DNA of 64,000 bases from a virus (taxonomy: Duplodnaviria; Caudoviricetes): IMG/VR virus record IMGVR_UViG_3300037515_000879, positions 18,258 to 82,257 of that record. One strand, written 5' to 3'. Below, piece after piece: positions 5,974-36,791 of the stretch. Within the stretch, counting starts at the first letter, position 1. Each line of letters opens with the position of its first letter. The notes under the pieces are model-generated. The model was not told the origin of the DNA. It worked only from the letters and a program-made list of their open reading frames with translations, and did not search any database. The position numbers were made by a program, and so were the translations under genes.

Positions 5974-6552
5974 TTATCTTATTTCGTGATAAAACGAACT
6001 CTTTTTCTCCAATTTCTGTTCTAACCTTGAAAGACTGTAACCGTTGACAACAGGGGATTCATGATAAATATCCTGGCCCTCAATTCGTTTTGTAAAAGCC
6101 TCAATGTCGTCATTGATGCTTCTCAAATCTTTTTTAAGCTGGGCCATTGTGATGTTTTTTCTTTTTTCATCATTGGAATCCAAGGTATCATACTCCTTTA
6201 TTTGCTGGAGTTTTCTAACCTTTTGGTCATAGTAGATTCGTTTCTCTTCAAGAGTTGGATCATATTGTAGGGCATCATATTTTTTTAAGGCAGATTGAAT
6301 CAATTCAGTGTTCCAATGCCATTTGTTTCTGTCTCCAATAACTTCTTCCTGTGCTTTTTTTGGACGGTCAATGTCATTGTAATATCGGATTGGAGATTGA
6401 TAATCGGCAACAAGTGCAACGGCTGTCAAGCAATAGATTCCATAATCTTCACTTTTCATAAGCTCTCTAAATTCCTTTATGGACAATATGCCATCATCCC
6501 CATCTTCAATGAGCAACAATCCTGTTTTTTTATCTATTCTGGTTAAATACAT
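5974..6552 (-). CDS. Hypothetical protein, possible terminase small subunit
   Basis: 192-aa helical protein immediately upstream of terL; call is positional only. Confidence 0.4.
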   Translation of the reverse strand: MYLTRIDKKTGLLLIEDGDDGILSIKEFRELMKSEDYGIYCLTAVALVADYQSPIRYYNDIDRPKKAQEEVIGDRNKWHWNTELIQSALKKYDALQYDPTLEEKRIYYDQKVRKLQQIKEYDTLDSNDEKRKNITMAQLKKDLRSINDDIEAFTKRIEGQDIYHESPVVNGYSLSRLEQKLEKKSSFYHEIR

Positions 6553-6581
6553 TGTGCTAATGTAATAAAAAAAAGAGGAAT

Positions 6582-6905
6582 TTAATTTTCCTCTTTTTTG
6601 TTGGACATTTTATATTTTTTTGCCAGTCGTTCCATTTGTCTTTCGCTTTTAAAAACCTGCCATTCCTTATTTATTTTTTTATAAATATCGGAATAGGATA
6701 AATTGGGATCTAGAAGTTTGTAGAACTCCCTTAAAAAACCAACTTTATAAATCAATTTTTCATGGTTGTTCTTTATATTGTTTGGAACATGGAATATCCA
6801 ATGATCCGTATCAATATTCAGCATATTTTTTTTAATATGCTCTGGAACATTGATCACCGCTTCTGTTGTATCTATAATATAACCAGTAAATTTATTTACT
6901 ATCAT
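6582..6905 (-). CDS. Hypothetical protein (107 aa)
   Basis: Packed co-directional ORF in the operon. Confidence 0.7.
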   Translation of the reverse strand: MIVNKFTGYIIDTTEAVINVPEHIKKNMLNIDTDHWIFHVPNNIKNNHEKLIYKVGFLREFYKLLDPNLSYSDIYKKINKEWQVFKSERQMERLAKKYKMSNKKEEN

Positions 6906-7293
6906 AACGTTTTTCGCTAGACGTTTTAAAACTCAAGACAGGTTTTTCCGTTTTTGAAAGACTCATTGTGGCATAGCGCTCAATTTCTTCTGTAAGGGAT
7001 TTTCCTATTTTTTCAAGATCGTGAAATGAAACAAGCTGTGGAATGGTTTTTTTTACACGGGCCTGAAGCTCTTTGTCAATCATCATTAATATTTCATTAT
7101 TGTGATTGATGTGTTTCTTCATAAGATCCATGGTTTCCATATAATATGTTGGCCCTATTTTTTTTTGATCCTTTGCTTTTTCAACATTTTCACAAAATTG
7201 TACCATTTCGGTACTTAGGTACTCGATGAACCTTTGGGTAAATTCCAAAGTTGTTGTGGCATGATTTTTAAAATCAATCTTCAGCTTTTCCAA
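6892..7293 (-). CDS. Hypothetical helical protein (133 aa)
   Basis: Overlaps both neighbours, as in a coupled operon. Confidence 0.7.
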   Translation of the reverse strand: MEKLKIDFKNHATTTLEFTQRFIEYLSTEMVQFCENVEKAKDQKKIGPTYYMETMDLMKKHINHNNEILMMIDKELQARVKKTIPQLVSFHDLEKIGKSLTEEIERYATMSLSKTEKPVLSFKTSSEKRYDSK

Positions 7294-7516
7294 TTTTTAA
7301 TGCTTTTTTCTTAGATTTAATCTCTTTATAAAAATAGCTTCCATAACTTTCAGCCATCATAAAACTTTCCCATTCTCGTAATGAAAACGGCGTATATTGC
7401 CAAATATCATTGTTATTAAACTTAATAAACAAGGCTTCTTCTTTTGAAACAAAGGCCACTGCGCTTATTTGTGAGCTTTTTTTCTTAATCCAAGGAATAT
7501 CATTGATATCTATCAT
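7274..7516 (-). CDS. KTSC domain protein
   Basis: SSQISAVAF...LFIKFNN..IWQY......W..FM.AESYGSYFYKEIK matches the KTSC consensus. Confidence 0.85.
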   Translation of the reverse strand: MIDINDIPWIKKKSSQISAVAFVSKEEALFIKFNNNDIWQYTPFSLREWESFMMAESYGSYFYKEIKSKKKALKIGKAED

Positions 7517-18946: not shown

Positions 18947-19189
18947 ATGAAAGAAACAGATATTCGAAAAAAAACCAAGAAACAATATATTTTATCTTCT
19001 AAAGAAAAAAAAGACATTTATACAATGCTTTTTGGTCCTTATGAAGACGAATGGTATGATGAAAACGGTATTGTTGACAATACCGATGTAACAATAGCAA
19101 GAAGGCTTAATATATCAAGGGTATCTGTTGCTGCTTATACAAACAGATTGTGTCATATGCATTTTAATAAAATCAATAGTAATGGATAA
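18947..19189 (+). CDS. Small HTH protein
   Basis: DVTIARRLNISRVSVAAY; start placed after the terminator. Confidence 0.6.
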   Translation: MKETDIRKKTKKQYILSSKEKKDIYTMLFGPYEDEWYDENGIVDNTDVTIARRLNISRVSVAAYTNRLCHMHFNKINSNG

Positions 19190-19385
19190 AAATAAAAATT
19201 TGAAAATATATTATACCTATGGCCATTATTTGGAATATGAGGAATGGTCTGAAATGTTTGCAGATGAAATAGATATGGAGCTTATAAATATTGGAGCTAA
19301 CAATGAATTGGATTTTAATCCAGAAAGGGAGTATGAAAAAAGATACCAAATATATTTAGAGGTATATTATAATTCTCGTGTTTAA
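19182..19385 (+). CDS. Hypothetical acidic protein
   Basis: Start MDKNK overlaps the upstream stop. Confidence 0.6.
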   Translation: MDKNKNLKIYYTYGHYLEYEEWSEMFADEIDMELINIGANNELDFNPEREYEKRYQIYLEVYYNSRV

Positions 19386-19395
19386 ATTAAAAATT

Positions 19396-19908
19396 ATGAA
19401 ACAATTATTAGTTATCCCTCTAATGCTAATAGGATTATTGGGAACATCACAAAATGGATTCCGTATTCCGGATGATGAACATGCCATCTTTAGTGTATAT
19501 GCAGATTATGCTGACAGTAAAGTCAATGGATATGGCCCCAATATAGGGGCTGAATTTGGTTATTCTGGATTTGTGGAAGCCAAGGTTGGATTTGAAACGT
19601 TTCCACAATTGTATGGTGGCTATATAGATGTACATGGTGCAATAGGATTTAAAATGGTACACGGCCTTTGGGAACAATGGAATTATTATGCTGGTATTCG
19701 TGCCATAGTGGTATGGCGCGGTGGAGAAGGCGCGTGGAGAGCCCAGCCAGGCATTGAAGGACAAATAACGTATGACCTCAATGACTGGTTTGGGATTGGA
19801 CTTCGTGGAACCTATGATAAACGCTATGATATGGAAATATTTGATTGGCCTGTAAAAAATGTGGCCAGTGCATATTTGATAATAATATTTAAGCTTAAAA
19901 GACAATAA
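19396..19908 (+). CDS. Secreted outer-membrane beta-barrel-like protein
   Basis: Signal peptide MKQLLVIPLMLIGLLGTSQ followed by alternating amphipathic Gly/aromatic strands (YYAGIRAI, QITYDL, GIGLRGTYD). Confidence 0.65.
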   Translation: MKQLLVIPLMLIGLLGTSQNGFRIPDDEHAIFSVYADYADSKVNGYGPNIGAEFGYSGFVEAKVGFETFPQLYGGYIDVHGAIGFKMVHGLWEQWNYYAGIRAIVVWRGGEGAWRAQPGIEGQITYDLNDWFGIGLRGTYDKRYDMEIFDWPVKNVASAYLIIIFKLKRQ

Positions 19909-19910
19909 AG

Positions 19911-20186
19911 ATGGAAGAAGAATTTGAAATGCCTACACCCTGTCAAAAATGCGGTGAAATATTTGACCTGAATGATGGCACAGGTTCAGTTAAATGGTTT
20001 CCAAACACTGTAATTTGTCAAAAATGCGGTGATGAGGAAGAAAAAGAAATTGAACGAGATGAGGAAATTGAGGACTTAAAAAGCCAAATTGATGATGCAA
20101 ATTACACCATCAAAGAAGCTCGTTCAAGATTAATGGAATTAGGCGTAGATGTTCCTTCTTTAAGAGTTCATACACCTGATTATTAA
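19911..20186 (+). CDS. Zn-finger plus coiled-coil protein
   Basis: CQKCG...CQKCG. Confidence 0.7.
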   Translation: MEEEFEMPTPCQKCGEIFDLNDGTGSVKWFPNTVICQKCGDEEEKEIERDEEIEDLKSQIDDANYTIKEARSRLMELGVDVPSLRVHTPDY

Positions 20187-20356
20187 AGGTGCGGTGGCAG
20201 GGATAAATTATTTCTGCTAACGTTAAAATATATGATTAGTAGTCGTAAATAAGCGACTAAATATCGAATTAAAACTAAGTTATTAAACACTTAATAGCCT
20301 TTAAAATAAGCACGACACAGGCTATTAATTATATATAGTGTTGTGAAACGTTTTTT

Positions 20357-20644
20357 ATGAGAACTTACAAAAATGAATTAGAAGTAATTGCAAACGATTT
20401 ACTTACTCAAAATGCAGAAGCAAAAGGTAATGAAAACAAGCCGAATTATACTAACAGAGAATTTATGAATGCTGTTATTATTTTCCAAACTGCATTAATG
20501 GATAAAATGTATGATAACCAAGACTATGACAAAATGGATGTTGAAAATCGTTTTAAAATGGCTGAGAGTTGCGGATTAGATTTACGCAAATTAATACACA
20601 CTTACACAGGTTTAGATACTCATAAATTCGAGGACTTTCTGTAA
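20357..20644 (+). CDS. Cassette 1 hypothetical protein (95 aa)
   Basis: Fills the cassette; stop lies inside the terminal repeat. Confidence 0.8.
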   Translation: MRTYKNELEVIANDLLTQNAEAKGNENKPNYTNREFMNAVIIFQTALMDKMYDNQDYDKMDVENRFKMAESCGLDLRKLIHTYTGLDTHKFEDFL

Positions 20645-20764
20645 ATGTTGCACAACGTAAAGTATAAGGTGAGAAGCCACACCTGAAATTTGGCTATTAA
20701 ACACAAACCTTAGATGGCTTTTCACTTTATACAGTGTTACCCATCTTTTAAAAATGGCGGACAA

Positions 20765-21064
20765 ATGAAAGCTAAATATGAACAAATTGATGGAGTTGGT
20801 TATCTCACTTTTAAAGTAACCGAAGAAATGGGATTGATGAAATTGCCTGTAATTACTAAAAGAATAAGGCAAGGAACAAATGCTTGGACTTGGAATGGTG
20901 ATTTGGATAAGCCAACATTAAGACCAAGCGTAAGAACTGGTTATTACAACGGCAAAGAAATGACGGAAATACATTATTGGCTTAATGACGGAATAGCTGA
21001 TTGCTTGGGCGACTGCAAAGACGGAAATGCTGGTAAGAAACTACCTTTATTAGAACTCGAATAG
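20765..21064 (+). CDS. Cassette 2 protein, DUF6527-like
   Basis: WTWNGDLDKPTLRPSV...H..L.DG....LGDC; start at MKAKY. Confidence 0.65.
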   Translation: MKAKYEQIDGVGYLTFKVTEEMGLMKLPVITKRIRQGTNAWTWNGDLDKPTLRPSVRTGYYNGKEMTEIHYWLNDGIADCLGDCKDGNAGKKLPLLELE

Positions 21065-21136
21065 TAGCCATTTTTTATTGTGGGTAACGTTTACGGGTAT
21101 GTTGTCGGTTTTTTACGGAATAAATAAAATATAATT

Positions 21137-21451
21137 ATGAAAACAACAAGTGAAGTATTTAAAGAAGTGCTGATAGAATTAGGTTTTGCAGGATATAAAC
21201 CAAGCCAAATGACTAACAGCGATTATTGGTTATGCACTACAACTGCTATGGAACGGTATGCTAAATTAGTAAAAAACTGCAATATACCCGATGTTAGCAA
21301 ATCGTTGCCGATTAAGAAATACGAAATTGATTTTGACGGCAATGTATTGGCAGGGATAGAAATATCTGAAAACACACCGAAAGTATTTGGGGCAATGAAT
21401 GGTTACGGCAATGGTATTAGTATCGAAAATATCAAAATTACCGAGAAGTAA
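21137..21451 (+). CDS. Fusion ORF spanning the attC-like site 3 loop and cassette 3
   Basis: ATG lies in the hairpin loop and the frame reads through GTT (NIPD-V-SKSL). Confidence 0.7.
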   Translation: MKTTSEVFKEVLIELGFAGYKPSQMTNSDYWLCTTTAMERYAKLVKNCNIPDVSKSLPIKKYEIDFDGNVLAGIEISENTPKVFGAMNGYGNGISIENIKITEK

Positions 21452-21515
21452 GGCAATGTTTGGTAACAAGTGGATATATATACCATTACACTATATTAAC
21501 AAATAAATTGAAATT

Positions 21516-21944
21516 ATGATTTGGATATGTAAATGGTTCAAAAAAAGAACTAAAAAAAAAATTATGGTTGTTGAAACTAATATCGAGGAAATGACAATAT
21601 CGGAGCTTGTTTTCTGTCTTGAAGTTAATTCATATAGAAGAAAGCTTGGTCTAAATGAGCTTGAGCTTAATGGACATTTATTGACTTTAGCCAAACATAG
21701 AATGGCTTATTGGACAACAAACGATATTAAAAAAAATTTGCATTTTGAATTTTTTGGAGACAGAAAACCATATCTTGAAAACGGATTCAAATTGGTTTTG
21801 GAGCTTGCCAATTATGGCATTGTCAATGATTTTGAGTCTTTCAAAAAAAGCCCCGAACATAATGAAGGGATATTGATTAAAGAACTCAAATATATTGCAG
21901 TATCGATGAAAGGAAATTGGTGCTGTGTAATCCTTGGTTATTAA
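21516..21944 (+). CDS. CAP/SCP-like domain protein
   Basis: R..LGL..L..N..L...A..H/R...H...KSPEH...IL......IAVS. Confidence 0.6.
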   Translation: MIWICKWFKKRTKKKIMVVETNIEEMTISELVFCLEVNSYRRKLGLNELELNGHLLTLAKHRMAYWTTNDIKKNLHFEFFGDRKPYLENGFKLVLELANYGIVNDFESFKKSPEHNEGILIKELKYIAVSMKGNWCCVILGY

Positions 21945-22082
21945 AAAAACTTATTTTAAGCCCTTTTAACGCGTTTTATTATTTTTAGATACTAGACCAT
22001 CAAAATAAAGAGAAGTCTTTAAAACGCTATATATCTACAATAAGCCAGACCTGTTTTTGTATAATCCTAAAACAGATAAATT

Positions 22083-22321
22083 ATGGAATCAAAAATCGAT
22101 TTAAAAAAAAGTATTGAAAATTATCATTCTGATAGTTTTTATTTGATAAGTCCGGATGGATTTTCAATAGCTCATGAAAAACAAAACAAAGAAAATACAT
22201 AACCATGAATCTTAATGTAATAATACCTGAAAAATGGAACCCTGAATGCAAAAAATCTTTTAATAAATGGATTAACAGGGTACATACCGAGGTTAAAAAA
22301 AAGAAAATTAAAAAATCATGA
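22083..22321 (+). CDS. Two tiny ORFs (22083-22202, 39 aa; 22205-22321, 38 aa)
   Basis: The second ends in an ATGA overlap with radC. Confidence 0.45.
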
Positions 22322-22782
22322 TTGAATATAAAACCGATTTACCACAATTTCATTTGGTAAAAGAAAAATCTGATTTTAAACGTGTAAAAATAACATGTTC
22401 AAGAGATGCTGCAGAATATGCCCATAATTTTTACGGGTTTGATATAGAATTATTTGAAAGCTTTTTTATCATGCTTTTAAACAATTCAAACAATACCATT
22501 GGTTATGTAAAAATATCTCAAGGTGGTATTGTTGGAACTATCGTTGATGTTAGGATTGTTGCAAAATATGCTGTGGAATCTTTGTCAACTGGAATTATTT
22601 TGGTACACAATCATCCAAGTGGAAATTTAAAACCAAGCCAACCAGATATTGACCTTACCAAAAAAATAAAAGAAGGTTTAAAAATACTGGATGTAACTGT
22701 TTTGGATCATATAATAATAATTCCAATTGAAAAAAACGAAAATATAAAATATACCAGTCTTTGTGATGATGGATTAATGTAA
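22318..22782 (+). CDS. radC: RadC-like JAB domain protein
   Basis: ILVHNHPSGNLKPSQPDIDLT...VLDHIII. Confidence 0.93.
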   Translation: MIEYKTDLPQFHLVKEKSDFKRVKITCSRDAAEYAHNFYGFDIELFESFFIMLLNNSNNTIGYVKISQGGIVGTIVDVRIVAKYAVESLSTGIILVHNHPSGNLKPSQPDIDLTKKIKEGLKILDVTVLDHIIIIPIEKNENIKYTSLCDDGLM

Positions 22783-22793
22783 AAATATTTGAT

Positions 22794-23051
22794 ATGATAA
22801 CAAACGCTATTAATACAGTAATAAATTATAATTATTTCTGTATGAATTACAGTCATAAATTTATTCACGAATGTTGGAAAGGGAATGATGTTCTCATACA
22901 ACATCTTGAAATGAAATTCAATGATATTTATTTAAGAAGAGGAACTGCAACAATGCCGTTCTTTTTTGTAGAATTGGACAGGGAAAATCAAAAAAAATTG
23001 ACCAAGTGGATTAATGAAAATCATGTAGCATTTAAAGAACTTGAATTATGA
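22794..23051 (+). CDS. Hypothetical protein (85 aa)
   Basis: Coupled operon ORF. Confidence 0.65.
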   Translation: MITNAINTVINYNYFCMNYSHKFIHECWKGNDVLIQHLEMKFNDIYLRRGTATMPFFFVELDRENQKKLTKWINENHVAFKELEL

Positions 23052-23260
23052 AAAAAACATTTAATTATGTTGAAATAACCCTTGGTATCGTAGAGGCTGA
23101 AGATCTTGAAGATGCTATGGCTGTTGTTGAACATGGGTTTGGACCCAATATTGGACACACTACATATGAAGTGTTTAATCCTGATGATGATCCAAAATTT
23201 TGGGGAAACCTAGAGATTGATACTGTAAAGGAACTTAAATCCAAAATCGAAAAATTATGA
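23048..23260 (+). CDS. Hypothetical protein (70 aa)
   Basis: ATGA overlaps at both ends. Confidence 0.7.
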   Translation: MKKTFNYVEITLGIVEAEDLEDAMAVVEHGFGPNIGHTTYEVFNPDDDPKFWGNLEIDTVKELKSKIEKL

Positions 23261-24141
23261 GTGTTTATGAAATAATAACTGACGAAATAATTAAAAGACT
23301 TGAATCTGGTGTTGTTCCTTGGCAAAAGCCTGTAAGAGGAATGATATTGCCACCAATGAATTTCAAATCAAAAAAACGTTATCGTGGTGTCAATTGCCTT
23401 TTGTTGTCAAATAAAGAATCTATGAGCCCTTATTGGCTTACATATAACCAAGCCAAGGAACTTGATGGTGAAATTACAAAAGGAAGTAAGGGAACCCGTA
23501 TAGTTTTTTCGAAATTGATTGAAAAAGAAAAAAATAATGAAATTGTTAAGGTTCCGATATTTAGATATTCATACGTTTTTAATCTTAATCAAATTAAAAA
23601 CATAGAATGTCCATATAAAAAAGAGTTGGACAGTTTTGGTGATTTTGAATATATTGAAAATTGTCAAAATTTGTTATCAAGATTGGATGAAGAGAAAAAA
23701 ATTCCTAAAATTGAGGAAGTTTATGACAAAAGAATTGCTTGTTATAATGTCAGCAAGGATATTATTTTTACTATTCCTAAAAAACATTATGTTACTTCCG
23801 AAAAATATTATTCGGTAATGTTTCATGAGATTATTCATTCAACAGGACATCTTTCAAGATTAAATAGAATAACCTTGACAGAAAATAAAGACGAAAATTA
23901 TGCCAAAGAAGAATTGGTGGCAGAAATAGGCGCTTCTTTTTTGTGCGGTGTTACCGGTATTATAACTGATACTATTGAAAATAGTTCTGCATATATTGAT
24001 AATTGGTTGAAAAGAATCAGGAATGATAAAACTTTAGTTATAACAGCAGCCAGTAAAGCACAGGAAGCCGTTGATTGGCTTAATGTTTATGATGATTCTA
24101 TTGATAGTGAAATATTAATACAAGGTGAAAGAAATGGATAA
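23257..24141 (+). CDS. ardC: Antirestriction protein ArdC (ssDNA-binding plus zincin-like domain)
   Basis: GVVPWQKP, YRGVN, WLTYNQA, FHEIIHSTGH, YAKEELVAEIGA. Confidence 0.93.
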   Translation: MSVYEIITDEIIKRLESGVVPWQKPVRGMILPPMNFKSKKRYRGVNCLLLSNKESMSPYWLTYNQAKELDGEITKGSKGTRIVFSKLIEKEKNNEIVKVPIFRYSYVFNLNQIKNIECPYKKELDSFGDFEYIENCQNLLSRLDEEKKIPKIEEVYDKRIACYNVSKDIIFTIPKKHYVTSEKYYSVMFHEIIHSTGHLSRLNRITLTENKDENYAKEELVAEIGASFLCGVTGIITDTIENSSAYIDNWLKRIRNDKTLVITAASKAQEAVDWLNVYDDSIDSEILIQGERNG

Positions 24142-28892: not shown

Positions 28893-29180
28893 ATGAACAA
28901 ACAAGATTTAATTAAAAAAGTCTCCACGCTAACAGGTTATAGCGAGGAAATCGTTAAAAACATTATTAACGAAACTATTGATTCCATTAAGGATAACCTT
29001 TATTTTGGAATAGATGTTCACATTATGGGTTTCTTAAGCCTTGTTCTTGTAAAGAAAAAAGCTTCTATACTTAGAAATCCAAAAACGGGAGAAAAGGTCA
29101 TGAAACCAAAACGATATGACGTTAAAATAACACTTTCCCGTATTTTCAGAAAAAAAATTGAAAGCAAAACCGTTTATTGA
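28893..29180 (+). CDS. HU/IHF-family DNA-binding protein
   Basis: MNKQDLIKKVS...GF....RNPKTGEKV; promoter at 28863-70. Confidence 0.9.
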   Translation: MNKQDLIKKVSTLTGYSEEIVKNIINETIDSIKDNLYFGIDVHIMGFLSLVLVKKKASILRNPKTGEKVMKPKRYDVKITLSRIFRKKIESKTVY

Positions 29181-29467
29181 TGTTTAATCCCAGAAGTAAT
29201 TTTAAACCGGTTCCAAAATATTACATAAAAAATATATTGGATGATGAAATCTTTAATAGCGATGCTTTCAACAAACACGTAAAACAAGTTTCACTTAATA
29301 TAAATATGGATGAAAAAACAGTAAAAAAAGTATTAGTAAGTTATTTTATGAACATAGCGTTCGTACTTAACACCGTTAGAAAAATTAAAACAAAGATTAA
29401 CGTACTTGGTTTCTTTTCCCTGATTGTTAGGGATGGATATCTTTACAAAAAAAAAATTAAATCATGA
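29177..29467 (+). CDS. Degenerate HU/IHF-like protein
   Basis: VKQVS....MDEKTVKKVL...INVLGFFSL, without the DNA-binding arm. Confidence 0.55.
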   Translation: MMFNPRSNFKPVPKYYIKNILDDEIFNSDAFNKHVKQVSLNINMDEKTVKKVLVSYFMNIAFVLNTVRKIKTKINVLGFFSLIVRDGYLYKKKIKS

Positions 29468-30414
29468 GTAAGTTTACAGCCCCTGTGGGCGATTCAAAGA
29501 AAATTGAAAATGTGGAATTGATACCTAGGGGTTTTCAATTATGTACATTTTATGCACTTGTTGATATTGGAACTCAAAAGACAAATTTTGGTGATAAACA
29601 CCAAGTTAAATTGTCATTTGAATTTCCACAACATTATCGTAAGTTTTACGAAGATAGGGATCCGCAACCAGCATCAATATTTTGTACGGAAACATTGAGC
29701 ATGAACAAGGAAAGCAATTTGCGAAAGAAATATGTTCAGCCAATGGCCGGAAAGGTGATGACAGATGAAGAAGCTGAAAATTTTGATATTTCCATATTGC
29801 TTGGAAAAAGCTATGTTGCCACGGTTTCACATTCTCCCGATGGTAAATGGGCAAACATAGATTCCATTGTTCCATTGGATTCAAATAACTGTAAAATGTT
29901 TGGTGTAAGTCCTCAAGGTGTACAATCAATAAATAGCATTGAATTTTTTCATCTTTCTGAAGGATTTGATTCCATGGCGTTTGGACATTTAAACAATTAT
30001 TTCAGAGATCTTGTCATTGGTTCAGAAGAAGGAAGAAAATATGCTGCTTCTGGTGGAAAATTCCATGATAAGATAGATTCTAGTGGACAGCAATCACAAA
30101 CTTCTGTTGCTGGACCACCGAGTTCTTTAAAGGTTCAAATGAATCCAGGATCAGCTCCTTATGAAGCAATGATTGCTGCTGGATGGATAGATAAACTTTT
30201 AGTGGAACATGGACACGCAAAATGGATTGAGGCTGTTGCGCCTCCAGTTGTTTCTCCGCCACCTTCAGTTCCATCAACTCCGACGGCTACTCCGCCACCT
30301 GTTGTTAAGAAACTTGTTTTTAAAGATCCAGGCGCCGCTCCTTTAGAGGATTGGATTAAAAATGGTTGGACTGAAGAAAAAATAGTTTCTGAAGGATATG
30401 CGACTTTTCAATAG
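29464..30414 (+). CDS. Phage SSB-like / NGO0469-family replication protein
   Basis: YALVDIGTQ...V.L.FE...TLSM...SNLRK...FDISILLGK; Pro-rich C-terminal linker. Confidence 0.7.
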   Translation: MSKFTAPVGDSKKIENVELIPRGFQLCTFYALVDIGTQKTNFGDKHQVKLSFEFPQHYRKFYEDRDPQPASIFCTETLSMNKESNLRKKYVQPMAGKVMTDEEAENFDISILLGKSYVATVSHSPDGKWANIDSIVPLDSNNCKMFGVSPQGVQSINSIEFFHLSEGFDSMAFGHLNNYFRDLVIGSEEGRKYAASGGKFHDKIDSSGQQSQTSVAGPPSSLKVQMNPGSAPYEAMIAAGWIDKLLVEHGHAKWIEAVAPPVVSPPPSVPSTPTATPPPVVKKLVFKDPGAAPLEDWIKNGWTEEKIVSEGYATFQ

Positions 30415-30545
30415 GAACCATTGTTGAGCAACGCAATGTGGTTCCAATTGTTCTCAAAATTCCTGTAAAGGAGAAAGAGGAAGAAGTTGTAACTATCTTT
30501 GATGGTGGTCCACATCTTGGTGATGAAGATGACTTGCCTTTTTAA
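30408..30545 (+). CDS. -1 frame extension of the SSB-like gene ending in ...GDEDDLPF*
   Basis: 45 open codons with an SSB-type acidic tail; stop overlaps the next ATG (TAATG). Confidence 0.65.
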   Translation, partial: SIGTIVEQRNVVPIVLKIPVKEKEEEVVTIFDGGPHLGDEDDLPF

Positions 30546-30925
30546 TGCATCAGTTTATTTGTATTGTTCAAGAGGGAAAAATAGTACCTCTTGAACATTC
30601 CAAAAAAAAGTTTTTCAATAAGCTTATCAATAGTTATTCAGACTTAAATAAAAAGTTTAAGGTAACTATTGAAAATATTGAAAAAAATATTAATGAAAGT
30701 CAAATTTCTTTATACAGGGCTTTTATAATCAAATCATCGGAACATTTTGGGGTTTCATATAATGAAATGCAAAAAATGTTGATGGTTTATTGGCCTTTGG
30801 ATTTGAGTTCGTCTGTTTTAGAGGTTAAATATAAAGATGTTGATAAGTGGAGCAATGAGGATCTTGATTTATTTATAACAAAAGCCTCTTCGCATTTAGG
30901 CGAATATGGCTTTAAATTCGAATGA
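30545..30925 (+). CDS. NinB/Orf-like recombination accessory protein
   Basis: Q..LY........HFG......M...........FI......L.EYG pattern. Confidence 0.45.
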   Translation: MHQFICIVQEGKIVPLEHSKKKFFNKLINSYSDLNKKFKVTIENIEKNINESQISLYRAFIIKSSEHFGVSYNEMQKMLMVYWPLDLSSSVLEVKYKDVDKWSNEDLDLFITKASSHLGEYGFKFE

Positions 30926-31103
30926 TATGCTATACATAATAGTGGCACAAGCCGCGAGAATGGCCGTAATATGGACGGTGAACGCAACGACCAGAAAGGT
31001 CTTGAAAACAATAGCCATAGGGTCAATTACATTTTATCTTGTAAAAAGGTATAAATTTTTAAAACAGCGAGATGAAAGAAGAAACCTTCACACTAACAAG
31101 TAG
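30906..31103 (+). CDS. Small hypothetical protein
   Basis: Fills the operon gap; start uncertain. Confidence 0.4.
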   Translation: MALNSNDMLYIIVAQAARMAVIWTVNATTRKVLKTIAIGSITFYLVKRYKFLKQRDERRNLHTNK

Positions 31104-32439
31104 TCAAGAAGTTTTACGTGAAAAACTTAAAGCATTTTTAGATAGTACTGAACGTATGTTTCTTTTGATTGGAAAGCCAGGTGTCGGAAAAACCACAATG
31201 ACAAAAATTGTTCTTGAAAAACTTATAACACTTGATCGTGAAAATAAGTTGACAGGAGTAAATGCGAATGTAGTTGGAATTGCTTTGGCACATCAGGCAA
31301 AAAATGTGCTTGGTGAACATATTCCCAATGTATATACTTTTGCAAGTGCTTATGGCATGAAAGAGACATTTCTGGAAAACGGTGCAAGAGTGTTTGAATA
31401 TAATAAATATCAAAAGGATATTCCTATTGGAGAATGTTGTATTCCGGTATTTGTACATGATGAAGTTTCTCAATATACAGAAGAAATGTTGAAAATTGTC
31501 CTTGAAAAAACACCCATATTCAGTAAAATAATATTGATGGGCGACAAAGGGCAGTTGCCACCAATAGATTTTCGAAATGAAAGAAATGACAATGATAGTC
31601 CTGTCTTTGATTTAGATCTTCCTGAAGAGTGTAAACATGAGCTAACAGAACGCGTCAGACAAAGTGAAGGAAATCCAATATTGGATCTTTCTGATATGAT
31701 ACGTGAAGAAATATTTGGAAATCAAAATATAAATAAGGTATTAAAAACAATATCAAGTCCAAGTCTAAATAATGGTCATGGGTTTGATTTTATTCCTTAT
31801 TCCAAATTGAACGAACATATTGAAAAGAAAAATAAGTTGAACACTAGGGTCATTGCCTTTAGAAAAAAGACGGTTGAATATTTCAATATTTCAATAAGGA
31901 ATTTTGTTCTTGACAATCCAAAAGAAATGTTCATAAAAGGTGATATTGTTTGTATGCTTGATAATTATTATCATATGGAAGCTGAAAACATAGTTACCTA
32001 TATTTTGCACAATTCAGATATTTTCAGGCTTACAAAAGTCCATAAAAGGTATCAGAAATTCAGCGATAATCACAAAATGCACAAAATAGAAGTTTATATT
32101 GGAAATATCGATAGTCAAAAAGACAAACAATTGATTGTTCCAACAAAAGAGGGTCAAAAAGAGGTTGACAAAATATTGTTGGAGCTTGCTGCAAAATGTC
32201 GTGAGAAAAAAGCAAAATGGGTGGATTTTTGGGACTTTAAAAAACACTTTTGTATTTGTACCTATGGATATGCTGTAACGGCCTACAAATCGCAGGGGAG
32301 TACTTATGACAGTGTTTATGTAGATATCAATGACATATTATTGACATTACCGTTAACACCAAAAAGAAAGCTTCAAACGATTTATACTGCCATTACAAGA
32401 GCCAGGGAAAATGTTTATTTTCTAAAATCGAAAATATGA
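31072..32439 (+). CDS. SF1B helicase (Dda/RecD-like)
   Basis: GKPGVGKTT, HDEVSQ, GDKGQLPPI, YAVTAYKSQGSTY, YTAITRAR. Confidence 0.92.
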   Translation: MKEETFTLTSSQEVLREKLKAFLDSTERMFLLIGKPGVGKTTMTKIVLEKLITLDRENKLTGVNANVVGIALAHQAKNVLGEHIPNVYTFASAYGMKETFLENGARVFEYNKYQKDIPIGECCIPVFVHDEVSQYTEEMLKIVLEKTPIFSKIILMGDKGQLPPIDFRNERNDNDSPVFDLDLPEECKHELTERVRQSEGNPILDLSDMIREEIFGNQNINKVLKTISSPSLNNGHGFDFIPYSKLNEHIEKKNKLNTRVIAFRKKTVEYFNISIRNFVLDNPKEMFIKGDIVCMLDNYYHMEAENIVTYILHNSDIFRLTKVHKRYQKFSDNHKMHKIEVYIGNIDSQKDKQLIVPTKEGQKEVDKILLELAAKCREKKAKWVDFWDFKKHFCICTYGYAVTAYKSQGSTYDSVYVDINDILLTLPLTPKRKLQTIYTAITRARENVYFLKSKI

Positions 32440-32574
32440 TGGGAGATTCATATTTGGAAAGCAAGAATAAAAGTATTGATTTTTCAAAAACAATGTACCA
32501 TTTTACAATTATACTTTACACAAAAAAGTTTTACAGAAATAAAATTAAAGAGTTTAAAAATAAATTAGAAAATC

Positions 32575-33468
32575 ATGGAAAGAGCGAAATTTACAGCTCC
32601 GGTCAATAATTATGAACAAGTCAATTTTTCCAAAAAGAAAATTGATAAGGTTGCCTTGATTGATGCCGATAGATATAAGCATCTTGTTACATATCGTATG
32701 TGGCAAAAGCTTATGGATGAAGGAGAGCCGCACACGACCTCAATGTTAAATGAAATCATTGATAGATATTTATCAAATGACATATTTAGTTTATTTGAAG
32801 CTAAAGCCTACATATTTTGTTTTAGCGCACCATCTGGATTGGTTTTTAGAAATGCCATTGCACAAGCAAAAAAATATAAAGGTGGAAGAGCCAAGGACGA
32901 TCCTTATTTCTATACCAATAAATATGAAGACATGGCTTATGTCTATGAGTATATAAATGAGAGATATCATACTTTGTTTTTTGAAGATCTTGAGGCTGAT
33001 GATATTTTATCGATGCTTCAATGTGAAAATACTTTTATATTCTCACACGACAAAGACTTAAAACAGGTTCCGGGCTGGCATTGGGATATATTGAAATATG
33101 ATCTTGTAATCATTTCCGAAGAAGAAGGATTTAAAAATCTTTTATATCAGATATTACAGGGCGATAGCACAGATAATATTTCTGGCCTTCAGGGGTTTGG
33201 TGAAAAAGCCCTTGAAAAATTTAAGACTGATATAGATGGTCCTTCAATAAAGGCCGAGCATCTTGTTTACCATATCATGAAGCTTTATACTGATAGATAT
33301 GGTATATTAAAAGGTTTTGATACATTTGTTGAAATGTGGAGTTTGGTTTCACTAAGACTTGATCGGGGAGCTTATAACCGGGATAAATATGCGACTGCAT
33401 TTTATCTGATTGAAAAACTTTGTAAAGATGCAAATAACAGCGGAGATATCGATAGCACTAATGTTTAG
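32575..33468 (+). CDS. 5'-3' exonuclease / flap endonuclease (T5/T7-like)
   Basis: LIDAD, LEADD, HDKDLKQVPG, GDSTDNI.G..G.GEK. Confidence 0.92.
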   Translation: MERAKFTAPVNNYEQVNFSKKKIDKVALIDADRYKHLVTYRMWQKLMDEGEPHTTSMLNEIIDRYLSNDIFSLFEAKAYIFCFSAPSGLVFRNAIAQAKKYKGGRAKDDPYFYTNKYEDMAYVYEYINERYHTLFFEDLEADDILSMLQCENTFIFSHDKDLKQVPGWHWDILKYDLVIISEEEGFKNLLYQILQGDSTDNISGLQGFGEKALEKFKTDIDGPSIKAEHLVYHIMKLYTDRYGILKGFDTFVEMWSLVSLRLDRGAYNRDKYATAFYLIEKLCKDANNSGDIDSTNV

Positions 33469-33697
33469 GATTGCAGAGCTTTATCCTAAAAACATTATTT
33501 ATATGCCTATTGAAGATAGACGTGAAAACGGTGATGTTTATTGGGATTGTGCTATTTGTGAATGGCACAATGATTTTGTTGGAGAAACCGTTTATGCCTT
33601 TGAAAAATATCTTCATCCTTCAAGAGAAACGGCTTTAAATGAAATGGATGTCTTTGTTAAATATATTGTTGATACAGTAAAAATAATGTCAAATTAA
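33410..33697 (+). CDS. Hypothetical protein
   Basis: Co-directional ORF; start probably later than in the track. Confidence 0.55.
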   Translation: MKNFVKMQITAEISIALMFRIAELYPKNIIYMPIEDRRENGDVYWDCAICEWHNDFVGETVYAFEKYLHPSRETALNEMDVFVKYIVDTVKIMSN

Positions 33698-33701
33698 ATT
33701 T

Positions 33702-33854
33702 ATGAAATTAACCAAATATCATAAAGATGTTTTTTTTGCTAAAATCTGTCCTTATTGTAAATCCAGTACAATTAATGTTCCTGAAAAATATATTTATGGA
33801 AAAACCTATAATAAAAAATTGATTAAATGTCTTATTATTAACTTTAATATTTAA
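33702..33854 (+). pseudogene. Truncated Zn-finger (DUF3268-like) remnant, 50 aa
   Basis: ICPYCK...YIYG.......KC, then an early stop. Confidence 0.4.
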
Positions 33855-33858
33855 AATC

Positions 33859-34929
33859 ATGAAAACAAAAACAGAAGAAGAAGTTCAAGAGGTTGTAATA
33901 TTGACCGAAGAACAAATTGAATCGCTTCCAAAAGAAGTAAAGGAGAATGTTGTGTTTCTTACAGAAAAAGTAAATACTACAGATTTAGCTAAATTAAATC
34001 CAGTTGTTACTGAATTGATTGGCATTAGAGAGGATGGTGAAAATTTAAAATTTATTCCTGCCGATAAAGATGGAAATTTTGATAAAGACAACATACAGTC
34101 TTTTGTTGATGTAAAAAAACGGGTAAGATCATTTAGGGCTCGTGTTAAAGATGTTGCCAAACAAATGAAGGAAGAACCGGCAAAAATAACCAAGGCTATT
34201 ATTGCTATTGAAAAAACCTTCATTGACGAAGCTACTGTTGTTTATGATAATGCTGAAAAGGAATTTGATGTATATATTAAGGCAGAGGACGAAAAAGCCA
34301 AAGCCAAACAGGAAGCTAAAAACAAAGCCTTGTTAGATGCTGTAGATGAAGCTTCAAAAGCCAAAGAAGAGGCGAATTTAAAACTTAAAGTTTCGGAAAT
34401 ATATAATAAAATCAAATATGATATTATTACAAAATCTATTGTTGAAAATGTAAGCGAAGCTCTTTTGAATGCCAATGAAGCTCGTTTAAAAGAACTCAAT
34501 GAAGAAATCAATAAAACTTCTTATTCTTCAATTGTTGAGGATATTGATATTTCTATATTGGCACAGGAAGTACGTGTTGAACTTCAGGAATTTTATTTAA
34601 CAGCTAGAAGTAGGTCAATAAAATTGATAAATGAAAAATTGGCCGCAATTGCTATTGAAAAAAAGAATGTGCTTTTAGAAAATGAAAACGCTAAATTTGT
34701 TTCACATAGCTCGGCTGTTCCAAATTTACCTCCTGTTCAGGAAAAAGAGCCTTCCATGGTTGATCCATTGAATGATATTGATCAATGGCCCGACAATGTT
34801 TTTATTGATTATATTTTTAAAGAGGCAAATAAATTGTTATTTTTAACGAGTGATAGGATTCAGAAGAAACCTCATTCCAATCCAAAAATCTACGATTTAC
34901 GAAACCTACTTTATAGATTTAAACAATAA
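33859..34929 (+). CDS. Coiled-coil protein (DUF1351/Gam-like)
   Basis: Long heptad-rich helices; typical of phage recombination modules. Confidence 0.55.
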   Translation: MKTKTEEEVQEVVILTEEQIESLPKEVKENVVFLTEKVNTTDLAKLNPVVTELIGIREDGENLKFIPADKDGNFDKDNIQSFVDVKKRVRSFRARVKDVAKQMKEEPAKITKAIIAIEKTFIDEATVVYDNAEKEFDVYIKAEDEKAKAKQEAKNKALLDAVDEASKAKEEANLKLKVSEIYNKIKYDIITKSIVENVSEALLNANEARLKELNEEINKTSYSSIVEDIDISILAQEVRVELQEFYLTARSRSIKLINEKLAAIAIEKKNVLLENENAKFVSHSSAVPNLPPVQEKEPSMVDPLNDIDQWPDNVFIDYIFKEANKLLFLTSDRIQKKPHSNPKIYDLRNLLYRFKQ

Positions 34930-34932
34930 ACT

Positions 34933-35691
34933 ATGATAGCAATTAAATTTCCAGCCTTACATAAGGCTCTTATGAAAAATGTAAAAGATTTGGACGAAGA
35001 TGATCCTAGAAAAGGGATTATTGTTTTGAACGACAACGCCATTGTGTTTTCGGATCATTTTTGTCTTGTCTGTAATCTCTTCGATTTTTTTACCATTGAA
35101 TCAGGAATTGAAGATGATAAAGAAATCGAAGAACTGAAGCGTATTTTGTTCTTTATGGATGGCCAGATATTCAGTCAGGAATTTTGGACCGAAATAACTA
35201 AGTTTTCACATATGAAAATAGACAAGGGAAGTCTTTATATTGAAAACCCAAAATATTCAAAAGATTTGCATCAAAAAGAATTGGATGTTAATTTCATTGA
35301 ACCATTAAGCAAACTAAATAATGTTTCCAATCAAGGGATAAATAGTGTTGAGGCCATTGCTTTGCCATTTGGTGCCTTGAAATCCATTTATGATACTTTA
35401 TCTTCAGAATTTAAAAATGATTTGATAGTTCTTGAATTTACAGGTCAGGATATGCCAGTAAAATTTACATTCAGAAAACGAAAACATTTTTATGGCTTTA
35501 TAAGCCCACACTATGATTCTGCACAGGAAGGCTTCAAGTTTGAACTGTTGGAAGAGTTGATTGTTTCCACGGAAAAAATGCTCAATGACCTTAAAGAAGA
35601 GGAAAAAAATAAAGTTATTCCACCACCTCCAGTTTTTGAAACTGTTGAAGTTGAAGAGAGCAACACAAATCAATTAAATATAATAGTTTGA
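34933..35691 (+). CDS. Hypothetical protein, possible sliding-clamp-like C-terminal domain
   Basis: IALPFGALKSIY......IVLEFTGQDMPVKF.....GFISP. Confidence 0.45.
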   Translation: MIAIKFPALHKALMKNVKDLDEDDPRKGIIVLNDNAIVFSDHFCLVCNLFDFFTIESGIEDDKEIEELKRILFFMDGQIFSQEFWTEITKFSHMKIDKGSLYIENPKYSKDLHQKELDVNFIEPLSKLNNVSNQGINSVEAIALPFGALKSIYDTLSSEFKNDLIVLEFTGQDMPVKFTFRKRKHFYGFISPHYDSAQEGFKFELLEELIVSTEKMLNDLKEEEKNKVIPPPPVFETVEVEESNTNQLNIIV

Positions 35692-36395: not shown

Positions 36396-36401
36396 ATAAT
36401 C

Positions 36402-36472
36402 AAAGAGCCAATCGAACGAGTCTAATAAGTTTAAAATTATAACATAAGATCTTATTAGGGTTGGCTCTTTTT
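36402..36472 (+). terminator. Long hairpin terminator
   Basis: AAAGAGCCAA/TTGGCTCTTT outer stem, CTAATAAG/CTTATTAG inner stem, U-tract. Confidence 0.7.
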
Positions 36473-36486
36473 AATTTTAATGAAAT

Positions 36487-36648: not shown

Positions 36649-36791
36649 TATGATTAAAAAATGTAATAAGTGTGGATGTACCGAAAATAATTCGTGCATT
36701 CAAAAGGTATGAGTCTTTTCTCCAAGGATGCCCACTATTGGAGCCTTGTCAAGAATATTGGCTCCCAATTAATAGCAATCCTATTTAACGA

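Follow-up and report, generated by a model that had tools for sequence, protein, structure and literature searches.

Can a phage without an integrase carry an array of integron-like gene cassettes? The question is raised by the region 20219-21467 (+ strand) of a 64,000-nt window from the 82,257-bp genome of a distant crAss-like phage, where three hairpins bounded by AAC and GTT lie within 1.1 kb. The first-pass annotation had interpreted this region as an integron-like, Bacteroidota-type cassette array, and the covariation, the cassette-exact indels, the mosaic breakpoints and the presence of the same sites beside a bacterial recombinase described below support this interpretation. We consider it likely that the array consists of three mobile cassettes of a Bacteroidota-wide integron-like system, with the strand exchange, the circles and the acting enzyme being inferred only.

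The hairpin sites and their cargo genes

AAC...GTT hairpins were detected in the whole 82,257-bp genome using a score cut-off of 27. Only the three annotated hairpins scored at or above this cut-off, all on the + strand (Table 1), while 40 dinucleotide shuffles of the 82-kb genome produced a mean of 0.3 hairpins per strand and a maximum of 2. A first scan for inverted repeats was uninformative because AT-rich DNA contains many chance repeats and the tool ignored G.T pairs. When the whole window was searched, neither Rfam (gathering thresholds) nor a tRNA scan produced a match.

Table 1. Coordinates of the cassette array, its head hairpins and its borders.
Feature	Position	Strand	Composition
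Left border	20205..20221	+	R''-like half-site ending in AAC; fits the R'' arm pattern of bacterial arrays
Site 1, head hairpin of cassette 1	20219..20342	+	17-bp L stem, 20228-44/20320-36
Cassette 1	20222..20656	+	Hairpin 1, GTT arm 20340-53, ORF1 20357-20644, AAC arm 20643-56
Site 2, head hairpin of cassette 2	20654..20738	+	18-bp L stem, 20662-79/20715-32
Cassette 2	20657..21088	+	Hairpin 2, GTT arm 20736-58, ORF2 20765-21064, AAC arm 21067-88
Site 3, head hairpin of cassette 3	21086..21295	+	20-bp L stem, 21094-113/21271-90
Cassette 3	21089..21467	+	Hairpin 3, GTT arm 21293-309, ORF3 21137-21451, AAC arm 21452-67
Right border	21468..21515	+	AAC followed by A, not G; no further site; next gene starts at 21516

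The three sites conform to the plan of an attC site (R'' ending in AAC, spacer, L'', loop, L', spacer, and R' starting with GTT), with asymmetric spacers and a longer L stem than is usual. Site 1 is composed of the R-box half TAACG, a spacer of 5-6 nt, the L stem (14 Watson-Crick and 3 G.T pairs) enclosing a loop of 75 nt, a spacer of 3 nt and GTT; it has the G.T pair typical of the family at L-stem position 12 and can be aligned with 31 other sites (alignment A3, see below). Site 2 falls in an 85-nt length class, and its stem contains 16 Watson-Crick and 2 G.T pairs, the latter at positions 7 and 12. Sites 1 and 2 have all family features: a TAACG/TGTTA R box closed by a G.T pair, a stem of 17-20 bp, and the G.T pair at position 12. 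Site 3 lies where it had been annotated, but the stem is 20 bp instead of the proposed approximately 22 bp (16 Watson-Crick pairs plus 2 wobbles, with 2 positions mismatched), and 157 nt instead of approximately 150 nt separate its arms; its R box and stem are present, although near position 12 the stem is bulged or mismatched. The long loop of this site is real, but it is not only a loop, since it encodes the start of ORF3. The imperfect pairs had been described as mostly G-T on the top strand, and in sites 1 and 2 all non-Watson-Crick pairs are indeed G.T on the + strand. As free single-stranded DNA, the + strand of site 2 is predicted to fold into the stem (-11.5 kcal/mol, z -2.4), and the bottom strand folds worse (-8.9 kcal/mol, z -0.7). 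For site 1, whose stem is AT-rich, the minimum-energy fold of free single-stranded DNA is a different one.

A GTT.../...AAC inverted repeat brackets every small ORF of the array, so that the bases following each GTT pair with the AAC end of the next site, as the first-pass annotation had noticed. The arms of cassette 1 form 12 Watson-Crick pairs and 1 G.T pair, with 1 mismatch, over 14 positions, those of cassette 2 pair with gaps, and those of cassette 3 with one indel. The gapped anchored arm scores of cassettes 1 to 3 were 22, 25 and 22, respectively. A score of at least 22 is reached by 0.36% of all GTT/AAC pairs located 150-520 nt apart in the phage genome (P = 0.0036 each), and therefore any one arm pair of the window, taken singly, is unremarkable. 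That three such pairs occur at positions which the hairpins had set in advance is not due to chance. The arms (14-22 bp) are longer than the 7 bp of classical end pairing and the loops are variable, both as proposed. The same relation holds in longer arrays. In the siphophage lillamy9-1, the arm after a site pairs best with the arm before the following site in 11 out of 11 steps (scores of 25-30 versus a background of 8-17), and in the bacterial array G023:C12 pairing with the next site exceeds pairing with the own site in 23/23 steps. Moreover, the homologues of ORF1 carry at least 5 distinct yet mutually complementary arm pairs, each with a G.T pair at arm position 11.

ORF1 (95 amino acids) belongs to no known family: no Pfam or PHROG family was found, and the ESM Atlas returned unnamed viral clusters only. 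It shares 78% DNA identity with gp15 of lillamy9-1, in a match that ends at the ORF borders, and homologues are present at 70 viral loci, in which the head hairpin is kept with the ORF and similarity stops directly after AAC. ORF2 (99 amino acids) is a DUF6527 protein (Pfam PF20137, E 5e-8) whose relatives in the INPHARED collection are limited to distant DUF6527 proteins of unrelated phages. ORF2-like units at 4 other loci (L093-L096) differ in both their upstream and downstream neighbors; the homologues in L094 and L095 are headed by the site 2 hairpin, those in L093 and L096 by other hairpins. An upstream in-frame ATG (20714) was rejected as the ORF2 start: the frame is broken by a 1-nt difference in L095, whereas the ATG at 20765 is conserved.

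ORF3 (104 amino acids) is a two-part fusion whose ATG (21137) and approximately 50 N-terminal residues lie inside the site 3 loop. No match to it was found among INPHARED phages. Its homologues elsewhere are split at the GTT junction, with L102 and L103 corresponding to residues 1-68 and 1-44, respectively, and L104 and L105 to residues 54-102. In L106, the last 18 codons of ORF3 and a near-identical AAC arm are followed by another site. A start codon inside a long loop is also present in sites of lillamy9-1 and sniff9-1, including the annotated start of sniff9-1 gp17.

On the left, the array begins at a half-site that is probably the secondary site where the first cassette entered; its flank is closely similar to that of a two-cassette locus in Algoriphagus. 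On the right it ends as arrays do at other loci, where the last AAC is followed by T or A. The cassettes do not stand out as foreign by their GC content (33%, the same as the backbone). With regard to an attI site or a Pc promoter at the array head, the Bacteroidota -7 box TAnnTTTG does not occur in positions 20151-21560 and the left border of the array is only an AAC half-site, in a system for which there is no attI model. The array sits among early genes on the + strand, near RadC-like and ArdC-like anti-restriction genes.

Conservation of the sites and position of the breakpoints

We aligned 32 sites chosen with the hairpin detector (A3). Compensatory changes were found at 17 of the 18 L-stem pairs, and 93.8% of the cells were paired, versus approximately 40% when the partners were slid. 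The G.T pair at stem position 12 was present in 31/32 sites and the one closing the R box in all 32, while almost no sequence is common to the sites beyond TAACG and TGTTA. The paired fraction is partly built in because the sites were picked with the hairpin detector; the arms and the sniff9-1/lillamy9-1 indel described below are free of this bias. Judged from these sequences, selection acts on the structure of the sites. A covariance model (R1) was built from the 120-126 nt length class, with site 1 in the training set. R1 scored site 1 at 80 bits, and at E <= 1 it did not report sites 2 (85 nt) and 3 (210 nt), which are outside the length class of the model.

The same layout was found in unrelated Flavobacterium and Polaribacter phages and in the 70 viral contigs with ORF1 homologues. 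The system occurs in siphophages, podophage-like contigs and a crAss-like phage. The lillamy9-1 genome contains 12-14 sites, all on the gene strand, and our scan of the Polaribacter phage P12002L detected at least 9 co-oriented sites with cross-pairing arms. At the viral loci, all 72 R1 matches were on the gene strand.

The phages sniff9-1 and lillamy9-1, whose host is Flavobacterium sp. LMO9, are 99.7-99.9% identical outside a block of 1165 bp; this block, located at the TAACG of one site, corresponds precisely to two cassettes. In this indel the hairpin remains with the downstream gene, and the junctions have approximately 16 nt of identity in common. As the first-pass annotation had advised, we looked for the same cassettes beside other neighbors: ORF1 and ORF2 units were found in many different neighborhoods, with similarity stopping at AAC, and the chromosome of Algoriphagus confluentis holds one ORF1 unit, hairpin included. 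Contigs of other metagenomes depart from the window at 20745, 21095/21097, 21291 and 21466. One of them joins the sequence from 21095 onward to a different AAC arm. Another, from a soil metagenome of another study, contains positions 21291-21466 (176 nt) with 100% identity between unrelated flanks, and because of this identity within different flanks the comparison points to a very recent, presumed movement of the cassette 3 body. As read from these alignments, the AAC and GTT cores are where the mosaic breakpoints lie, whether in sister phages, in viral contigs or in other metagenomes.

Insertion had been proposed to occur at G|TT. The main junction in the phages is instead at the AAC side of the gene strand, which equals G|TT on the complementary strand, and GTT-side junctions also occur besides these dominant ones. 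Because the dominant junction is on the AAC side of the gene strand, the hairpin in phages appears to travel with the downstream gene and not with the upstream one.

For the window phage itself, neither a recombination event nor a circle or an empty site was observed. Among the contigs of four metagenome runs covering 19000-23000, none skipped a whole cassette or contained a circle junction; holes in contig cover (e.g., in X8 at 20340-21129) are no evidence either way, and small contig joints at 20777-20846 and 21364-21437 were discarded as rearrangements since they come from diverged homologues. A search for sister genomes with the flanking proteins (19378-19908, 21516-21944 and 19911-20186) yielded no close relatives, only distant contigs of 36-62 kb.

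Bacterial arrays and a linked recombinase

The absence of an integrase, which the first-pass annotation had stated for the window of this lytic-type phage, was confirmed in the complete genome (CheckV), where the recommended search for an IntI-like recombinase gave no match to the tyrosine recombinase family PF00589. Ten array-bearing viral records searched for PF00589 contained no full recombinase adjoining the array; one had a 40-amino acid C-terminal stub right after the array end, and another an integrase approximately 50 kb away.

Of 151 genomes sampled from the Algoriphagus phylum, 81 contained R1 matches, which were often clustered on one strand. The G023:C12 array comprises 24 sites in 20 kb. 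In G023, there are 31 G.T versus 1 T.G pairs on the site strand, to which 19 of the 22 cargo genes run antisense. Because the G.T bias follows the site strand while most of these genes are antisense, the signal of the site appears to be in the DNA and not in the mRNA. Bacterial cargo is thus mostly opposite to the phage orientation, in the classical gene-then-site order.

In Algoriphagus, a 390-amino acid tyrosine recombinase is encoded at L092:2833-4005, 1.1 kb from a four-site array. The family that it matches best is the integron integrase TIGR02249, with a score (202 bits) below the cut-off of 265. In the comparison with VchIntIA (2a3v), a segment of 66 residues in IntI corresponds to 23 residues in this enzyme, and approximately 43 residues of the insert are missing. 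The parallel with integrons drawn by the first-pass annotation is accordingly kept in the sense of integron-like, but not classical, because the linked bacterial recombinase is without the IntI-specific insert. A close homologue of this recombinase was present in 7 of 10 further array-bearing genomes checked (8/11 with Algoriphagus) and absent from the remaining 3 of the 11; in 7 of the 8 genomes having one, the best homologue lies 0.7-12 kb past the array end. In the bacterial arrays examined, the recombinase is co-directional with the cargo. A XerD-like recombinase heading a co-directional gene array with repeated intergenic elements is present in bacterial arrays built from these sites (G011, G023 and G031) and not in the phage.

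Proposed mechanism, alternatives and known systems

A cassette consists of a structured site, a GTT arm, one ORF and a complementary arm ending in AAC. The site reads TAAC|G and, after a spacer of 4-6 nt, a stem of 17-20 bp with fixed G.T wobbles and a variable loop, followed by a spacer of 1-3 nt and T-GTT. This architecture, the covariation, the breakpoints at the cores, the spread over different replicons and the linkage to a recombinase in bacteria were observed; the mechanism that follows is inferred. The arms of a cassette present as a free circle are predicted to pair into a helix of approximately 14-22 bp below the hairpin, completing an attC-like site, and the gene-sense strand, folded as single-stranded DNA, would be the substrate. 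The host or another element may supply, in trans, a Xer/IntI-like tyrosine recombinase that exchanges strands in the AAC core, resulting in insertion, excision or swap of cassettes, while a rarer exchange in the GTT core could swap hairpins between cargo bodies. The phage site is placed upstream of the gene and can contribute its start codon together with an N-terminal domain, of which ORF3 is an example. Junctions on both sides of the hairpin need both strands as substrates, or another process, and a matching recombinase in the phage host is an assumption, the host being unknown. A broader reading, which we put forward only tentatively, is that lytic Bacteroidota phages, Crassvirales-like ones included, are active in a phylum-wide, non-IntI integron-like network in which they borrow a short Xer/IntI-like host recombinase and swap single-gene cassettes with one another and with host chromosomes, the flipped cargo having the hairpin as a 5' leader that might provide start codons or entire N-terminal domains and would give rise to new fusion proteins by site-specific recombination.

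The alternative that survives best, although we regard it as rather unlikely, is that the cassettes once arrived by such a system or on a recombined segment and are now fixed and immobile in this phage. The complete genome without a recombinase, the lack of border polymorphism among same-phage contigs of the four runs, the GC content equal to that of the backbone and the short array ending in non-site sequence would all fit this. However, the three sites have all kept signature features, including the G.T wobbles, the cassette 3 body is found unchanged elsewhere within different flanks, and near-identical sister phages differ by whole cassettes.

Shuffling without any dedicated recombinase, in which the hairpins would only provide short homologies for the general recombination of the phage, as proposed for T4-type cassettes, agrees with the recombinase-free phage arrays, with breakpoints on both sides of the hairpins and with the short identity at the sniff9-1/lillamy9-1 junctions. 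We find it very unlikely, as the sites have hardly any sequence in common and retain their structure by compensatory changes, and it leaves unexplained the complementarity between the two ends of each cargo, the fixed G.T wobbles and the linkage to a bacterial recombinase.

Harder still to sustain is that the array is a fragment of a classical integron, with ordinary attC sites served by the IntI of co-resident bacteria. The CALIN criterion (at least 2 close attC sites without integrase) is met, provided that the sites count as attC-type; the R/L box plan is attC-like and the arm relation that of the textbook, and in P12002L, where a CALIN has been called, IntI1 recombined 1 of the 2 tested sites (PMC9892861). 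Yet the P12002L site belonging to the family described here, attC1, is the one that IntI1 did not recombine. In addition, IntegronFinder 2.0 was nearly empty for Bacteroidetes (only In0 elements and a single complete integron) versus sites in more than half of the genomes sampled here, the array-linked recombinase is without the IntI insert, and the phage cargo is flipped relative to the classical order.

Least credible, and already disfavored, is a purely RNA-level role, with hairpins and repeats acting as mRNA processing, stability or translation signals that spread only with their genes: in phages it is the sense strand that carries the G.T (G.U) pairs, the start codon closely follows the 5' arm, the stop codon shares bases with the 3' arm and the phage has no recombinase, but bacterial sites show the same strand-specific bias antisense to most of their cargo genes, homology between contexts stops exactly at the AAC/GTT cores, a dedicated recombinase clade adjoins the bacterial arrays, and Rfam gave no match. 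IS200/IS605-type ends and MITEs were discarded; there are no target duplications and no common terminal sequence, and arm-to-next-arm pairing does not fit them.

The prevailing view is that Bacteroidota have almost no integrons and that phages rarely carry them. The cassettes considered here, which we take to be mobile, resemble integrons and CALINs in their single-gene units, one-strand arrays and imperfect AAC/GTT hairpins built of R and L boxes plus an unpaired spacer and a variable loop. As in integrons, each site is followed by a core matching the inverse core of its successor, folding of one strand is favored by imperfections that are strand-specific, and a tyrosine recombinase stands at one end of the bacterial arrays. 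They differ from integrons in the short recombinase segment and the score below the TIGR02249 cut-off, in arm pairing of 14-22 bp rather than approximately 7 bp, in an asymmetric internal loop (4-6 nt versus 1-3 nt), in an L stem of 17-20 bp with a nearly invariant G.T pair, in a phage site that precedes the gene and can encode its start, in a recombinase co-directional with the cargo, and in arrays that are not detected as integrons in published IntegronFinder surveys. A structured-site cassette system is thus present in more than half of the sampled genomes of the Algoriphagus phylum, and phages and Bacteroidota appear to share an integron-like gene-exchange system missed by standard integron tools. 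For annotation, this provides exact cassette borders and a search model. If the proposed mechanism is true, strictly lytic phages and their hosts would have a route to trade methylases, regulators and genes of unknown function, the IntI-specific domain would not be needed for a working attC-type system, and many 'intergenic hairpins' of Bacteroidota phages otherwise read as terminators would be explained. The hairpin-as-leader layout would moreover suggest a way of making gene fusions, and new single-strand recombination sites and enzymes would become available for tool building.

A phage parallel is offered by the promoter/stem-loop (PeSL) mobile cassettes that Arbiol and colleagues reportedly described in 2010 in the hyperplastic regions of T4-type phages. 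Like the array of the window, these are said to be small accessory genes flanked by repeated stem-loops and shuffled between related phages. They are also said to carry early promoters, whereas the window array has no Bacteroidota -7 box, and are thought to recombine by homology. Unlike PeSL, the window sites vary in sequence and not in structure, the cargo ends are complementary, and there is a dedicated recombinase in bacteria.

Published precedents are partial and consist of the rAID-1 clusters and the P12002L CALIN. In rAID-1 clusters of gut Bacteroidales, small orphan genes form co-directional arrays with a XerD-family tyrosine recombinase at their head (Ross et al. 2019; bioRxiv 10.1101/471110). 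In the parts of that preprint available to us, these clusters are reported from more than half of Bacteroidales genomes, with repetitive intergenic sequences called reminiscent of integrons (bioRxiv 10.1101/471110). With respect to gene order, Algoriphagus and G023 show the same arrangement. That portion of the source deals with intergenic motifs and immunity cargo, and describes no folded sites, cassette borders or phage-borne arrays (bioRxiv 10.1101/471110).

P12002L is a virulent Polaribacter phage in which a CALIN was called (Qi et al. 2023, PMC9892861). This lytic phage of Flavobacteriaceae has attC-type sites by DNA methylase genes and, like the phage studied here, no integrase. Two sites in 'divergent directions' were reported; attC2 was recombined by IntI1, attC1 was not, and attC1 had been predicted by HattCI only (PMC9892861). 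Unlike the present analysis, that study made no link to a Bacteroidota-specific recombinase or to hairpin-headed cassettes (PMC9892861). In our scan, attC1 heads a methylase gene at record position 30046, has the plan of the window sites and is clearly a member of their family.

Three hairpin-headed ORFs in the early region of a crAss-like phage

The array is located on the + strand, among the early genes of a virus record of 82,257 bp with a CheckV completeness of 100%. Because the nearest relatives of its terminase in the phage collection are Crassvirales (approximately 25% identity) and the record also encodes a portal protein, GroEL, and a 3,836-amino acid ORF, "distant crAss-like" is a fair label for this phage. 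Between the ORFs at 19911–20186 and 21516–21944, we found 3 small ORFs, each with an AAC/GTT-bounded hairpin upstream. With the RadC-like and ArdC-N genes close downstream, the cassettes share their early region with likely counter-defence genes. A tyrosine recombinase was not found in the complete phage genome.

Features of the array and its downstream neighbours (window coordinates)
Feature	Position	Strand	Remarks
Site 1	20219–20342	+	AAC...GTT hairpin
Site 2	20654–20738	+	AAC...GTT hairpin
Site 3	21086–21295	+	AAC...GTT hairpin
ORF1	20357–20644	+	no known family
ORF2	20765–21064	+	DUF6527
ORF3	21137–21451	+	no known family
Cassette 1	20222–20656		
Cassette 2	20657–21088		
Cassette 3	21089–21467		
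RadC-like JAB protein	22318–22782		0.9–1.8 kb downstream of array (joint range with ArdC-N gene)
ArdC-N + zincin anti-restriction protein	23257–24141		0.9–1.8 kb downstream of array (joint range with RadC-like gene)

The first-pass annotation had described 3 AAC...GTT-bounded hairpins at these positions as an integron-like cassette array, with the stretch beginning at the GTT of each site (GTT arm) complementary to the stretch ending in AAC before the next site (AAC arm). All 3 hairpins were found where it had placed them, and the observation was confirmed. Both genome strands were scanned for hairpins, scoring Watson-Crick pairs +2, G·T pairs +0.5, and mismatches −3. Only sites 1 to 3 reached a score of 27 genome-wide, all on the + strand and inside 1.1 kb, and 40 dinucleotide shuffles of the genome produced a mean of 0.3 hairpins per strand. 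Each GTT arm pairs with the next AAC arm with gapped anchored scores of 22, 25, and 22, which only 0.36% of the GTT/AAC pairs at comparable distance in the same genome reach. A single arm pair is unremarkable, but 3 at pre-set positions stand out. AACGTT-type motifs of the array kind occur genome-wide only within the 1.3 kb of the array. The strongest GTT/AAC-anchored inverted repeat of the genome (21609–21768; score 30, 11-bp perfect core) lies inside the ORF just downstream of the array without an adjoining hairpin site; it could have arisen by chance or be the remnant of a cassette body.

Site architecture and cassette borders in phages

We aligned 32 sites of the 120 to 126 nt class, site 1 included. 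The common plan consists of an R box, in which TAACG pairs with TGTTA with an invariant closing G·T, an asymmetric internal loop (approximately 4 nt 5' and approximately 1 nt 3'), an L stem of 18 bp, and a loop of approximately 75 nt. Paired cells amounted to 93.8% versus 37% to 45% when partner columns were slid, and changes on both sides were found at 17 of the 18 L-stem pairs. Stem position 12 is G·T in 31 of the 32 sites, and G·T outnumbers T·G by 56 to 3. Since these sites were picked by a hairpin detector, pairing itself is partly built in; fixed wobbles, covariation, and arms were not selection criteria. Site 2, of the 85-nt class, carries G·T at positions 7 and 12; in site 3, which has the R box, the 20-bp stem is interrupted by a bulge or mismatches around position 12. 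When site 2 was folded as single-stranded DNA, the + strand gave exactly the predicted stem and the − strand folded more poorly. For site 1, the minimum-energy fold does not contain the AT-rich stem.

ORF1 shares 78% DNA identity, ending at the ORF borders, with gp15 of lillamy9-1, an unrelated Flavobacterium siphophage whose leftward early region contains 12 to 14 sites of the same plan, every one on the gene strand. When all its GTT arms were compared with all its AAC arms, the best partner of each site was the next one in 11 of 11 steps. Polaribacter phage P12002L (record 29000–41000, minus strand) carries 9 or more sites of this kind; they are co-oriented with cross-pairing arms, flank methylase, Mom-like, and small genes, and include the published two-site CALIN (attC cluster without integrase). 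ORF1 homologues occur on 70 viral contigs, and their arms come in at least 5 sequence versions, each pair mutually complementary and each version with a G·T wobble at arm position 11. All 72 covariance-model hits in viral loci were on the gene strand, approximately 25 of them being training sequences. ORF1 cassettes with typical sites were also present on 2 contigs of approximately 2 kb binned as Pseudomonadota and Saccharibacteria MAGs, which probably reflects mis-binning of phage or Bacteroidota DNA and not a wider host range.

The early regions of phages sniff9-1 and lillamy9-1 are 99.7% to 99.9% identical apart from a 1,165-bp block found in sniff9-1 alone. It consists of exactly 2 cassettes, and the insertion point is the TAACG of a site in lillamy9-1; the hairpin of that site remains with the downstream gene (record 6210–7397 in sniff9-1, approximately 6600 in lillamy9-1; both are isolated phages). 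At ORF1 loci, the upstream hairpin is kept with the ORF across many contexts and similarity ends right after the terminal AAC, and ORF2 with hairpin 2 was found in 2 further loci (L094 and L095) with other neighbours on either side. From these 3 lines of evidence, we define the phage unit as hairpin, GTT arm, ORF, and AAC arm. Exchange also occurs at the opposite end of the hairpin, with ORF1 bodies (loci L035 and L031) and ORF2 bodies (L093 and L096) found behind differing hairpins. Contigs from other metagenome runs diverge from the window at 20745, 21095/21097, 21291, and 21466, all a few bases or less from AAC/GTT cores, and a soil contig of another study carries 21291–21466 at 100% identity within unrelated flanks. 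AAC and GTT cores thus both act as borders; strand exchange is inferred.

Bacterial arrays and the associated recombinase

An ORF1 cassette with its hairpin is also part of a chromosomal two-cassette locus (L079) in Algoriphagus confluentis NBRC 111222, a genome with 13 sites detected by the covariance model. The left flanks of this locus and of the phage array share a near-identical 16-nt AAC-ended sequence (L079 1075–1094, window 20205–20221), which may indicate that R''-type targets of this sequence are preferred or that arms follow a shared consensus. Model matches (E ≤ 1e-5) were found in 81 of 151 genomes sampled from the Algoriphagus phylum, frequently as one-strand clusters. The bacterial array G023:C12 contains 24 sites within 20 kb, with arms pairing better with the next site than with their own in all 23 steps, a G·T bias of 31 to 1, and G·T at position 12 in 20 of the 24 sites. 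Here, 19 of 22 cargo genes are on the strand opposite to the sites; compared with bacterial cassettes, those of phages are flipped and hairpin-headed. As viral sites are on the gene strand and the G023 cargo is mostly opposite, the strand bias is a property of the site and not of the transcript, which argues for a role at the DNA level. Three consecutive cassettes of this otherwise antisense array (219847–221761) have phage-like sense cargo; cargo might be able to invert by way of the inverted-repeat arms.

In Algoriphagus, a 390-amino acid tyrosine recombinase is encoded 1.1 kb from a four-site array, co-directional with the array cargo. Its best NCBIfam match is the integron integrase TIGR02249 (202 bits versus a cut-off of 265), closely followed by XerA, XerD, and XerC, and the closest relative with a solved structure is an archaeal enzyme of the XerA type. 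Alignment with VchIntIA gave 2 blocks separated by 23 residues versus 66 in IntI, indicating that most of the IntI-specific insert is missing from the protein. Seven of 10 further array-bearing genomes checked encode a close homologue (E 1e-59 to 1e-73); the other 3 do not. In 6 of the 7 the best homologue is on the contig of the array, 0.7 to 12 kb beyond the last listed site, and housekeeping Xer genes score far below the array-linked homologues. The recombinase is on the site strand in G055:C33 and G079:C44 and on the opposite strand in genomes G011, G023, G031, G134, and G051, so at least 2 array layouts exist. Among 10 array-bearing viral records searched, 9 have no recombinase near the array and 1 (IMGVR_UViG_3300042569_002373) has a 40-amino acid stub directly past the array end. 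This stub, in the last 150 nt of the contig and directly 3' of the terminal AAC of an ORF1 cassette, is a tyrosine recombinase C-terminus with the conserved H-x-x-x-Y end motif region.

Relation to integrons and loop-encoded starts

For Bacteroidetes, IntegronFinder 2.0 reported one complete integron and otherwise only In0 elements. The preprint on rAID-1 gene clusters of gut Bacteroidales describes co-directional arrays headed by a XerD-like recombinase, with intergenic repeats "reminiscent of integrons" (Ross et al., bioRxiv 10.1101/471110). In P12002L, IntI1 recombined the second site of the two-site CALIN but not attC1 (Qi et al. 2023, PMC9892861); attC1, which heads a methylase gene, is a member of the site family of the window, and the recombined site is less typical of it. 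We found no published description of the site family, its borders, or the phage arrays as such. The integron-like reading initially proposed for the array is supported, but as a non-IntI variant in which phage cassettes are hairpin-headed. Strand exchange and circles are inferred, as is the identity of the acting enzyme, and whether the phage array presently moves is open.

The loop of site 3 has coding content: it contains the ATG and the first approximately 50 residues of ORF3, the remainder of which follows the GTT. Homologues divide at this GTT, with 2 loci (L102 and L103) matching only the N-terminal part and 2 others (L104 and L105) only residues 54–102, both kinds in non-cassette settings. 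Judged from these partial matches, ORF3 is a fusion. Similarly, the DNA methyltransferase gene of sniff9-1, one of its 2 extra cassettes, has its annotated start codon within the site loop.
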